Positions 27,324 through 55,019 of a stretch of DNA of 64,000 bases are shown piece by piece. Source of the DNA: Kiritimatiellia bacterium (GTDB taxonomy: Bacteria > Verrucomicrobiota > Kiritimatiellia > JAAZAB01); the NCBI GenBank assembly GCA_040767085.1, contig JAXGPF010000006.1, positions 1 to 64,000 of the forward strand, read 5' to 3'. Under the pieces are notes generated by a model. The model saw only the letters and a list, made by a program, of their open reading frames with translations. It was not told where the DNA came from and ran no database searches. The position numbers were made by a program, and so were the translations under genes. How positions within the stretch are numbered: position 1 is the first letter of the stretch; the number at the start of each line of letters is the position of its first letter.

Positions 27324-27353
27324 GATGCCTGCCCAGGGCTGCGTCATTCTTGG

Positions 27354-27423
27354 CGGCTCGCCCGGAGGTCTCGCCCTACCCGGGGAATCTGCTGAAGGTA
27401 GGGCGACGTCTCCGACGGAGCCG
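27354..27423. repeat. GTAG-type REP-like doublet between convergent genes
   Basis: CGGCTCGCCCGGAGGTCTCGCCCTACC and GGTAGGGCGACGTCTCCGACGGAGCCG; both units recur at 53944-54047. Confidence 0.85.
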
Positions 27424-53468: not shown

Positions 53469-53924
53469 ATGACCGACAAAAAGCAGCCGGATCAGAACAA
53501 AATCCTGTTCGTCAACATGGTTTCCATGCTGACCATGTCAGCCATGCACCAGTTGGGCAAGATCATCAATCCGGCCACCGGCAAGGCGGAAACCAGCCTC
53601 GAAGGCGCGCAAGCCACCATTGACATGCTGGATATGCTGAGCGCCAAGACCCGCGGCAATCTCGACGAGGAAGAGGGCAAGATGCTGGCGGACACCCTGA
53701 CCATGTTGAAATTGAATTACGTGGAAACCAGCAAGATGGCGCCGGCGGACGGCCAAAAGACGCGGCAGCCGGATGGAGAAAAATCGTCTGCCGCCGCCAA
53801 ACAACCGGCGGATGCCGGCGCCCCAAAAACCGGCGCCGGCAGCGCGCCCGCCGGCACAGGCCAACCACAGTCCGAACCCAAGCCGCCGTCATCCGACGCC
53901 AAGTTCCACAAAAGTTACGGGTGA
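53469..53924 (+). CDS. DUF1844-like protein
   Basis: QLGKIINP...AQATIDMLDML..KTRGNL..EE...L..LKLNYV; RBS AGGAGG. Confidence 0.85.
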   Translation: MTDKKQPDQNKILFVNMVSMLTMSAMHQLGKIINPATGKAETSLEGAQATIDMLDMLSAKTRGNLDEEEGKMLADTLTMLKLNYVETSKMAPADGQKTRQPDGEKSSAAAKQPADAGAPKTGAGSAPAGTGQPQSEPKPPSSDAKFHKSYG

Positions 53925-53943
53925 TTTGAGCGTCCGATCCGAT

Positions 53944-54119
53944 GGTAGGGCGAGACCCCGCTCAAAGCGGGGTAAACCTCCGGCTTGTCCCGCTTGGCGC
54001 GGGAGCGAGCCGTCCGCCCGCGGCTCCGTCGGAGACGTCGCCCTACCCCAGGAAACGTCGCCCTACCCCAGGAAACGTCGCCCTACCCCAGGAGACGTCG
54101 CCCGTCCGGAGACGTCGCC
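53944..54119. repeat. REP-like cluster: interrupted REP, inverted partner and 20-bp tandem array (54031-54103)
   Basis: GGTAGGGCGAGAC...GCGAGCCG; CGGCTCCGTCGGAGACGTCGCCCTACC; GGA(G/A)ACGTCGCCCTACCCCA in about 3.6 copies; between convergent genes. Confidence 0.9.
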
Positions 54120-54149
54120 TTTTCATCCAGCACTCCGCACGATTGAATA

Positions 54150-55019
54150 TTAATCCGCCGCGACGGCGTTAATATCGGCCGAGAAACCGCCGGCCTCGAT
54201 GAAGGTAGCCTGCATCCGGCGGTTTACCATCTCGTTTTCTCCCGAATCGAAATCCCCCTGGAGGGTGCCGGCGATGGTGATCGCGTAGCCAGCCGAAGAA
54301 CCGCTGGCCGAAAACTGGGCGAATACCTGGGCGTCTTCCGGGATAACTACGCTGGGGTCAGATGCGTCATAGTTGCCGCCAGTGGTATTCATGTCGCCGA
54401 TATTCCCTTCATAAACCGCGCCATTGCTGTCCACCAGGCGCAGGGTATTGCCCGTATGATAGACGACGAAGGAATAAATCGCCTGGCCATGGTTGCCCTG
54501 GCCGGCGTCCTCCTGGGTGACGAGATACATGTAATTGGCCTTGATCGGCGTGCCCGCGGCGATCGGCGCGGGAAATTTCAGCGTCCAGACCCGGCTGGCG
54601 TAGTTGATGGTGCCGGAACTACCGTCAGCGGGCGAGACCGAGAGATTATAAGTGCCCAAGCCTGTATTCGCCGTGGCGTCAGTGAACCGGTAAGAACCGA
54701 CAATGATCGTCAAGGTGCCGGGAATCGGCACGCCATGAATGGTGCCGGAGAACTCCGTCGTCATGCCGTCGCCGGTCCCGATGACCTCATCGCGCGAACT
54801 GTTGGTAACGGAAATGGTACCCAGCATGTTCGTGCGGCCGAATTCGCGCACCAGCACCCTGCCGTCCGGGGCGCGATAATTGCCGCTGAAATTCGCCCAG
54901 TCATAACCGGTGCTCACCCAGGTATCCACTCCGCCGCCGCTGGTCCATTCGCAGCCGGTCATACCCAGAACCATCAATCCCATCCCCGCCAATCCCGCGA
55001 ACACTAACTTGCTCTTCAT
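54150..55019 (-). CDS. Hypothetical beta-rich lipoprotein
   Basis: Lipobox GMTGC after a hydrophobic stretch; contains IGTGDGMTTEFSGT...GTINY. Confidence 0.75.
   Translation of the reverse strand: MKSKLVFAGLAGMGLMVLGMTGCEWTSGGGVDTWVSTGYDWANFSGNYRAPDGRVLVREFGRTNMLGTISVTNSSRDEVIGTGDGMTTEFSGTIHGVPIPGTLTIIVGSYRFTDATANTGLGTYNLSVSPADGSSGTINYASRVWTLKFPAPIAAGTPIKANYMYLVTQEDAGQGNHGQAIYSFVVYHTGNTLRLVDSNGAVYEGNIGDMNTTGGNYDASDPSVVIPEDAQVFAQFSASGSSAGYAITIAGTLQGDFDSGENEMVNRRMQATFIEAGGFSADINAVAAD

Follow-up and report, generated by a model that had tools for sequence, protein, structure and literature searches.

The 64,000-nucleotide stretch of DNA analysed here (the window, part of contig C25 of a metagenome-assembled genome (MAG) called G000 from an uncultured Kiritimatiellae bacterium of sludge, 4.08 Mb in 28 contigs, ~61% GC and 95% complete) contains a 69-bp extragenic unit that resembles a repetitive extragenic palindrome (REP) and consists of a 27-bp short unit of the same genome interrupted by two 21-nt pieces. 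Each piece is a GC-rich hairpin with a short tag on one side, and we refer to the two as arm 1 and arm 2. We hold it about an even chance (probability roughly 0.5) that these arms belong to a nested insertion family of tag-plus-hairpin units that land in hairpin-forming DNA. REP-type repeats with nested, paired 21-nt mini-units look like a variant of the REP world, and the mini-units look to be among the smallest nested insertions known. The genomes compared with G000 include four of the same genus (G001-G004) and members of two other genera (G011 and G014).

The intact short unit, taken as the reverse complement of positions 27354-27380, is GGTAGGGCGAGACCTCCGGGCGAGCCG, and positions 53944-54012 read GGTAGGGCGAGAC followed by 21 nt, CTCCGG, a further 21 nt and GCGAGCCG (coordinates in Table 1). 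A sequence-only reading of the window had proposed that the second is the first interrupted twice, and this was confirmed by direct comparison and by a script that enumerated four possible placements of the inserts, every one of which gives 21+21. The same reading described the inserts as hairpins with a short one-sided tag (GTTTAC on the minus strand, or CTTG), which matches both arms, and as lacking a clear target duplication; none was seen at arm 2, which is fixed between GG and GC, but the placement of arm 1 slides over a 3-nt direct repeat, ACC, so this part of the description needs qualification. A single contiguous insertion instead of two was also considered and is excluded, by reasoning on the sequence, since no prefix/suffix overlap permits it. 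Exact copies in the assembly number 16 for the short 27-mer, 12 for the first 21-mer and 1 for the second, which is unique because the window copy bears one substitution; the commonest form of arm 2, CTTGTCCCGCCTGGCGCGGGA, accounts for 8 of 16 long-unit arms found by regular expression. G000 holds 22 long units (blastn-short) and 20 short units of the matching B type (regular expression), and the tag-to-tag intervals listed are CTCCGG (14), CGCCGG (5) and CTCTGG (1). The results that the sequence-only reading had named as refuting it did not arise: the 21-mers are multi-copy, independent assemblies agree on the long form, and the long form is not dominant over the short.

Assembled contigs from runs of three studies in the Logan collection support the long form at the window locus. 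The unique left flank runs into arm 1 in record 1 of X1 (53600-53973, 0 differences) and record 18 of X5 (53741-53969). Record 14 of X4 (53968-54064) and record 7 of X1 (53983-54064) start in arm 1 or 2, cross the unique spacer and reach the next unit, with 0 differences each; X1 may be the source sample of the MAG itself. Because contigs of three studies cross both junctions without difference, we conclude that the long form here is not an assembly artefact. MAGs do invite this concern, in that repeats break or misjoin contigs and the contigs of relatives end at such repeats, yet the different study codes argue against one shared source and the 22 long copies sit in different unique flanks, so we give next to no credence to an artefact or chimera of the metagenome bin. 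No joint from which the arms are missing was found at this locus in the Logan contigs, which is weak evidence given that such contigs drop rare variants. One X4 contig matches positions 53681-53922 with 15 differences in the upstream gene and then continues into G003-type sequence, and thus a second species of the genus is present in that sample.

The flanks of the window locus were found in all four same-genus genomes at 76-85% identity. In G003 a short unit is joined to the same neighbouring repeat unit (type C) and the same downstream flank, which makes this an empty orthologous site. The effect of the arms on folding is large: as DNA, the long form reaches -22.7 kcal/mol (z = -3.2 against shuffles), its best fold having the arm 2 hairpin extended to a 13-bp stem by the unit's own 3' GCGAGCCG, whereas the short 27-mer alone reaches -2.8 kcal/mol (z = +0.99 against shuffles). 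Applied to the short 27-mer of G000, which folds no better than shuffles, the earlier term 'REP-like palindrome' therefore claims too much.

The same double addition occurs in other repeat frames and other genomes. When the genomes of 185,579 species were scanned, arm 1 followed by 3-9 nt and CTTG turned up at 36 loci, in about nine Kiritimatiellae/Verrucomicrobiota MAGs. The outer stems around these arm pairs differ (GTAG-CGCCGCAC/GTGCGGCG, GTAG-GGCGGGAC/GTCCCGCC, GGTAG-CGGAGGC/CCTCCG, CCCACGAC/GTCGTGGG and others), with GTAG on the other side twice. Across 22 long forms from about nine MAGs, compensatory changes were seen at 7/7 outer-stem pairs, and 89.6% of cells were paired compared with 77.7% after shuffling (a value reached by 0/500 shuffles) and 38-51% with slid partners; the first hairpin (arm 1) was preset by the search pattern and hence uninformative in this test. 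This outer-stem covariation means that the arm pair always lies inside some hairpin stem, mostly behind GTAG; in the long units of G000 the outer stem is unpaired. Short forms of the same stems were present 37 times in G014 and four times in G011, and exact splits into short form plus two arms could be made in five frames of three genomes: 21+21 in the B/E and D frames of G000 (E being the long form of B) and in each of two G011 stems, and 20+21 in G016. The segment between the arms begins with the loop of the frame's short form in the three frames for which both forms are known (CTCCGG; AGCC..; GGC). A third 21-nt insert (TTTAC-CAAG plus a CCATG hairpin) lies in the loop of the arm 2 hairpin in four G011 copies (L058, L059, L066 and L072), a third level of nesting.

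What we regard as the strongest support for the insertion idea of the sequence-only reading is the polarity of change at a tRNA-Gly locus of G000 (C5:121300-122400, minus strand; L144), where an intact tRNA-Gly(CCC) gene lies among three partial self-copies bearing tagged mini-hairpins and ARAGORN called only the true tRNA-Gly. Relative to the tRNA, the fragments carry TTTAC+hairpin (22 nt) at 26|27, hairpin+ACAGG or ACAAG (22-23 nt) at 38|39, and one, two or three tandem units at 46|47 (CTTG+hairpin, TTTAC+hairpin and CTTGT+hairpin), of which the CTTGT+hairpin unit has a tag and stem identical to those of window arm 2. The intact tRNA represents the ancestral sequence, and the interrupting units are therefore insertions and not remnants. 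The first tRNA behind the same promoter is fully intact in G004, and intact in G002 to the contig end, which falls in the T arm. The orthologous fragment of G003 has the 38|39 unit in common but three different tandem units at 46|47, and thus unit content has turned over since the species split. The G000 locus also has a 90-aa GIY-YIG-like open reading frame (ORF) between two of the tRNA fragments; it is single-copy, with one weak partial match, and a link between this ORF and the mini-units was considered and rejected. G003 has the ORF and the fragment without one of the duplications.

Tagged hairpins extend beyond the long unit. A family test limited to CCCGC-N3-7-GCGGG hairpins, of which G000 contains 239, showed CTTGT (32) and TTTAC (18) to be the first and second most frequent flanking 5-mers and TTTAT (11) the fifth, the two 5-mers that otherwise outrank TTTAT stemming from the long unit's own frame. 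One tag was present at 68/239 hairpins and tags on both sides at none; 29 of the tagged hairpins are in long units and 39 elsewhere. A generic scan for a tag plus any 5-bp hairpin was uninformative, as control tags gave a background as high as real tags. The pair 'hairpin-TAAAC, 3-7 nt, CTTG-hairpin' is present in other G000 frames too, and another G000 repeat family shows one versus two copies of a hairpin+TAAA unit. The bases that precede inserts (GAGAC, CCGG, GAATG, CCCAA and GAACG) include no constant target word. The notion of a hairpin element family is thus upheld in part, in that the family is over-represented and 39 tagged hairpins lie outside the long unit, but the arms in REP frames are always paired; the proposed preference for palindromes agrees with the other hosts of the units, all of which are hairpin-rich (repeat frames and decayed tRNA-Gly copies).

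The units of G000 share a common grammar, GTAG-GGCGA, a small stem-loop and then GAGCCG, in which the inner 3-4-bp stem varies while pairing is kept (GACC/GGGC 19, GGTC/GTACC 18, CGTC/GACG 12, CGCC/GGCG 7, GGTC/GACC 5 and others). The sections of Quentin et al. 2018 (PMC6006769) that we consulted define a REP as GTAG or GTGG lying 0-2 nt 5' of a simple or bulged hairpin, with a basal stem of 7-20 fully paired nt that ends either in a loop of 2-5 nt or, past a small bulge, in a second stem. GGTAG-GGCGA... heads all unit types of G000, and GTAG directly precedes the stem in G011 and G014 units. Copy number is high, with 92 copies of the head GGTAGGGCGA in the 4.08-Mb assembly. The short unit of G000 departs from this stem rule, its only pairing being GGC/GCC and, beyond a GA/GA mismatch, an inner stem of 4 bp, whereas short units of G014 and G011 have 8-bp stems with 3-6-nt loops.

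The window locus lies between convergent ORFs that end at 53924 (+) and 54150 (-), and the long unit forms a tail-to-tail doublet with a unit of a different type (Table 1). The same doublet with a short unit replacing the long one occurs at C4:49406, C25:82830 and C23:111444, as well as in G003, where the orthologous place holds a single piece of the 20-bp tandem repeat. A search of Rfam 15 with positions 53600-54400 (E<=1) returned only a 16.7-bit chance match to a human long non-coding RNA model, and a tRNA-like cloverleaf for the long unit was rejected on unfit stem and loop sizes. Promoter, attC-site and ribozyme readings were set aside after consideration of their consensus sequences. Elsewhere in G000, a second long variant (A-type) has a 54-nt insert right after the loop (for example C27:40049, C3:144051, C4:139542 and C22:175220), and a repeat end, TGTC-GTAAACAAATGACTTGGCCGCATAATTAACAAATGATTTGTCCGC..., recurs at about 35 sites (for example C2:23645 and C25:263804) whose upstream flanks all differ.

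Table 1 Features of the repeat unit and its neighbourhood in the window.
Feature	Position	Strand	Basis
Long-form unit ('E'), GTAG head plus both arms, 69 bp	53944..54012	+	1 of 22 long copies; contig support from three studies
Host-unit head GGTAGGGCGAGAC, holding the GTAG tag	53944..53956	+	Sequence; 92 copies of GGTAGGGCGA
Arm 1, 21 nt: 8-bp GC hairpin then tag GTAAAC (reverse complement GTTTAC + hairpin)	53957..53977	+	12 exact copies
CTCCGG, host-unit loop segment retained between arms	53978..53983	+	Sequence
Arm 2, 21 nt: tag CTTGT then 6-bp GC hairpin; one base off the common form	53984..54004	+	Sequence
Host-unit tail GCGAGCCG	54005..54012	+	Sequence
8-nt spacer tccgcccg between tail-to-tail units	54013..54020		Bridged by Logan contigs
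Partner short unit, 'C' type, GGTAGGGCGACGTCTCCGACGGAGCCG on the minus strand	54021..54047	-	Inverted REPIN-like doublet with the long unit
20-bp tandem repeat of C-unit head plus CCAGGAAAC, 3.7 copies, 96% matches	54031..54103		Tandem-repeat call
Short-form unit ('B'), reference intact copy	27354..27380	-	16 exact copies; 20 by regular expression
Half MITE-type composite: end repeat (core 27337-27349), B (-), 16-nt spacer, C (+, 27397-27423)	27334..27423		No second end repeat seen
REPIN, REP doublet forming hairpin; MITE, miniature inverted-repeat transposable element.

Most of these units in G000 sit in MITE composites: a minus-strand unit, a 21-nt spacer and a plus-strand short or long unit, head to head and enclosed by inverted end repeats of ~16-18 nt (CA[GC]GGCTGCGTCATTCTC..., core GGCTGCGTCATTC). 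Composites measure 116 bp with a short unit and 158 bp with a long one (116+42), and larger mosaics also occur. Target duplications of 9-10 bp accompany them, with a perfect 9-bp duplication at 15/43 end-repeat pairs and one with a single mismatch at 14/43; inverted ends together with duplications of this length point to a DDE-type rather than an HUH mechanism for MITE spread. On both sides of the composite at C22:483190-483347 stands the 9-bp duplication CGATTTGCG, and the corresponding site of G002 is cleanly empty of the whole MITE. At C22:261437 no comparison of unit state was possible, because the element is missing in G002 and G003 holds another one, oppositely oriented; the orthologous comparison of MITE-borne long units covered L104 and L107 of ten fetched G000 loci. 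Among MITE copies, each spacer haplotype is found with long as well as short units (10, 5, 4 and 2 copies for the four combinations), and identical spacers carry either state, and thus repeated switching or recombination has taken place. None of 6 inspected end-repeat pairs, out of 12 lying 330-4000 bp apart, enclosed a full-length insertion sequence (IS) with MITE ends; they contained ordinary genes or no transposase. The window copy is not part of such a MITE, as no end repeat adjoins 53944-54047.

Candidate enzymes are found in relatives. In G003 and G001, the upstream gene and the doublet are separated by a small gene that has hairpin repeats with a GGTAGGGCG head on either side, and the product of the G003 gene matches NCBIfam NF047646 (REP-associated tyrosine transposase, RAYT) with 87.1 bits at a cut-off of 80. 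These RAYT cassettes (G003:C110:9250-10230, L010; G001:C51, L012) are flanked by perfect REPINs with the head GGTAGGGCGGCCAG..., and G000 retains the left junction of the cassette, GATCCGAT-GGTAGGGCG, as if the rest had been lost by recombination between REP heads. Homologues of this RAYT occur in 23/33 genomes of the family, and that of G014 is flanked on both sides by GTAGGGCCGGAC...GTCCGGCC. G000 itself has 8 PF01797 matches and 12 NF047646 matches, all of the latter below the cut-off (best 70.5 bits vs 80). Judged from these sequences, the repeat family is of the REP/RAYT kind, and G000 seems to have lost the enzyme and retained the repeats. A search for a Y1/RAYT nuclease flanked by the repeat motifs, which the sequence-only reading had advised, found none in G000, the cognate RAYT being present only in relatives. 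The best RAYT-like ORF of G000 (70.5 bits; L136, C27:99523-102936) follows three repeats of its own 5' region, upstream leader included, and stands between GGGTCGGACCGCGGCAA / TTGCCGAGGTCCGACCC repeats; this repeat system is not the GTAG-headed one. A truncated RAYT-like ORF at C15:15050-15560 has kept its HUH motif and lacks the tyrosine part; it has no REP flanks, and its neighbours are putative type I restriction-modification ORFs, judged by translation.

These observations can be arranged as a mechanism. Mini-units would land in hairpin-capable DNA, whether a REP unit, another palindromic repeat or a tRNA copy in decay. In a REP they would face each other across the host loop, and a hairpin that is weak by itself would become branched and fold strongly. 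Because no half forms occur in REP frames, the arm event looks paired and not like two independent hits, and both arms may be gained, or lost, as a pair in one event. The finished long unit would then be copied passively, in G000 mostly inside the 116/158-bp MITE with its target duplication. A Y1/HUH protein acting on single-stranded hairpins, either a RAYT or an IS200-like protein of G000, might place the units. HUH/Y1 dimers such as IS608 TnpA and TnpA-REP act on two single-stranded hairpins and leave no duplication; because of this mode of action, and because RAYTs accompany these REPs in relatives, HUH/Y1 enzymes are the natural candidates. We know of no substrate as small as 21 nt. Mobilisation in trans by an HUH enzyme, as the sequence-only reading had it, may apply, but the Y1/HUH genes of G000 adjoin neither tagged hairpins nor heads.

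Several results weigh against a family of landing units. Independent hits would predict many half-filled units, and there are none: in G000, 0/42 long and short units are half-filled, no unit has arm 1 only, the sole 'only arm 2' match of the regular expression is a chance match in unrelated DNA (C26:129611), and 0/27 strictly framed units have half-sized interiors; the fetched G011 and G014 loci gave 32 short, 16 long and 0/48 half-sized framed units, counts that are biased by having been retrieved in searches for long or short forms. The geometry also varies between frames. In the B/E frame, on our reading, and in those of G011 the arms can be placed at one base-pair step, and this was rejected as a general rule by the D frame, in which they flank only the 5' strand of the inner stem; tags are directed inward in REP frames, outward at the anticodon arm of the tRNA. 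New arm insertion is not needed for most of the 22 long copies, which ride in MITEs; the A-type variant has indels of hairpin size whose borders differ (interiors of 66, 42 and 40 nt) and which look more like replication slippage; and the polarity shown by the tRNA comes from a single locus. No enzyme is tied to the mini-units by gene proximity in G000: although it is 95% complete, G000 gave no tblastn match to the G003 or G001 RAYT, the search for homologues across the family gave 0 matches in it at E<=1e-5, and there is no GTAGGG head within 400 bp of the 8 PF01797 matches, and no tagged hairpin within 2 kb of the 12 Y1-like ORFs. A search of the four same-genus genomes for the long 69-mer gave nothing at E<=0.01, a negative that says little since their assemblies, of 90-580 contigs, break at such repeats.

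An alternative interpretation is that the long unit arose once as a static allele and spread passively and by gene conversion or recombination, short forms being produced by loss of the arms. That the arms always occur together with 0 half forms, that the carriers are MITEs with target duplications, and that the long form is present in another genus within the same MITE family, and hence old, are all consistent with such a history, as are REP units that are identical between genomes whose flanks differ by 15-18%, which fits homogenisation, and mosaic clusters like bacterial interspersed mosaic elements (BIMEs), which fit shuffling. We nevertheless consider it rather unlikely, though to be taken seriously, because it leaves unexplained the tagged units inside tRNA-Gly copies, the single units and tandem stacks there, and the extra 21-nt unit in four G011 copies. 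It would also need the same precise double loss several times for the centre to equal the short-form loop in frames with unrelated stems, and the homology available for gene conversion is only 13 and 8 nt at the unit borders.

Two further alternatives dispense with a mobile unit altogether. The inserts might be by-products of replication, formed by slippage or template switching among CCCGC/GCGGG hairpins followed by quasi-palindrome correction, with no dedicated enzyme. The stacks of one to three tandem units at one tRNA site and the different units there in G003 would fit, as would the one versus two hairpin+TAAA copies in another repeat family, the differing-border indels of the A-type variant and the 3-nt repeat at arm 1, and on our reading of the sequence the arms can pair with each other. 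Conserved one-sided tags, an arm length of 21 nt across five frames (once 20, in G016) and the same arm 1 hairpin stem in about nine MAGs argue otherwise, however, as does the lack of any repeat at the arm 2 borders; moreover, simple template switching would make arm 2 the reverse complement of arm 1, which it is not. We therefore regard this origin as improbable. Selection for a functional branched RNA or DNA element, for example a protein-binding site or a stabiliser of transcript ends, could account for the compensatory changes in the outer stem and second hairpin, for the unpaired GTAAAC and CTTG of every long form in about nine MAGs (although the search pattern demanded both) and for a window locus between the 3' ends of convergent ORFs. 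Yet insertion into different REP hairpins would account for the stem covariation just as well, the outer stem is unpaired in G000, no Rfam family matches, presence varies among close species, and copies lie in mobile MITEs, mosaics and dead tRNA pieces, so we think a selected function very improbable.

Among known systems, GTAG REPs, BIMEs and REPINs with their RAYTs come closest: they too have a GTAG head directly 5' of a hairpin, extragenic copies by the dozen, an arrangement in inverted doublets and mosaics, and sites between convergent genes, and the RAYTs of relatives of G000 are flanked by REPs with the same head. The work of Bertels and Rainey 2011 (PMC3116915) reportedly belongs to this REP/REPIN-RAYT literature. 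GTAG REPs have been described in the Planctomycetes-Verrucomicrobia-Chlamydiae group, including a Verrucomicrobia species, and REPs lying inside other palindromes are mentioned in the same source (PMC3733652, Di Nocera et al. 2013, consulted in part). Relative to the consulted parts of these accounts the nesting here is reversed, in that REP stems host paired 21-nt tagged hairpins, and the long form is branched, the published definition covering simple or bulged hairpins only. A further difference from the REP-RAYT system is that G000 has no RAYT above the NF047646 cut-off. Neither branched REPs nor paired additions of 21 nt are described in any paper found in the literature searched, which also yielded none on repetitive palindromes in Kiritimatiellaeota; subscription journals were outside its coverage.

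Other mobile elements share individual traits with the mini-units. Gene-less derivatives of IS200/IS605 are alike in combining a hairpin with a short adjacent word, in lacking a target duplication, in single-strand preference and in seamless gain or loss. IS200/IS605 elements have two different subterminal hairpins with cleavage words ~10-19 nt away and insert 3' of a fixed tetra- or pentanucleotide; in contrast, the 21-nt unit holds one hairpin and a 4-5-nt tag and has no constant target word. IS1397, ISKpn1, IS621 and relatives are full IS with their own transposase that target REP hairpins. They too use REP hairpins as landing sites, whereas the inserts here are gene-less and 21-23 nt long. 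MITEs, as generally understood, match the long-unit composites in their inverted ends, 9-10-bp duplications, size of 116-255 bp and an empty site in a congener, but the arms have neither inverted ends nor target duplications, and the window copy lies outside such a MITE. Mitochondrial mobile GC clusters, double-hairpin elements and repetitive hairpin-forming elements (PMC4478555, PMC2800124 and PMC7218506, from the portions consulted) are likewise tiny, apparently mobile GC hairpins that nest, form tandem arrays and invade structured genes. They are organellar and of unrelated sequence and their mechanism is also unsettled; we draw a functional analogy only and claim no homology.

A stronger form of the nested-insertion reading is that Kiritimatiellae hold a class of 21-23-nt mobile DNA, each unit one GC hairpin plus a 4-5-nt tag (TTTAC or CTTG), which would enter the stems and loops of other hairpins (REP units, palindromic repeats and tRNA genes) with no target duplication. 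Oppositely oriented pairs of them would enter REP stems in one step, as by a two-site Y1/HUH dimer that takes the folded hairpin for its target. We put this forward tentatively, as something that is doubtful in its full form. If true, 21-23-nt units would be among the smallest transposable units described, and they would offer a route from simple REPs to branched structures. REPs and REPINs are the commonest non-coding repeats of bacteria, and the origin of their new forms is poorly known. The units described here show elements nesting within elements at the smallest scale, as ~20-70-nt single-stranded substrates for which empty as well as filled sites exist in nature. Candidate enzymes are the IS200-like proteins of G000 and the RAYT found in its close relatives. 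We caution that branched GC elements and 'tRNA-like' pieces with hairpin inserts should be annotated as repeat DNA and not as new RNA genes. If an enzyme is involved, the range of DNA moved by HUH or other recombinases would widen; if none is, these repeats would be a clear example of hairpin-driven mutation shaping repeats.

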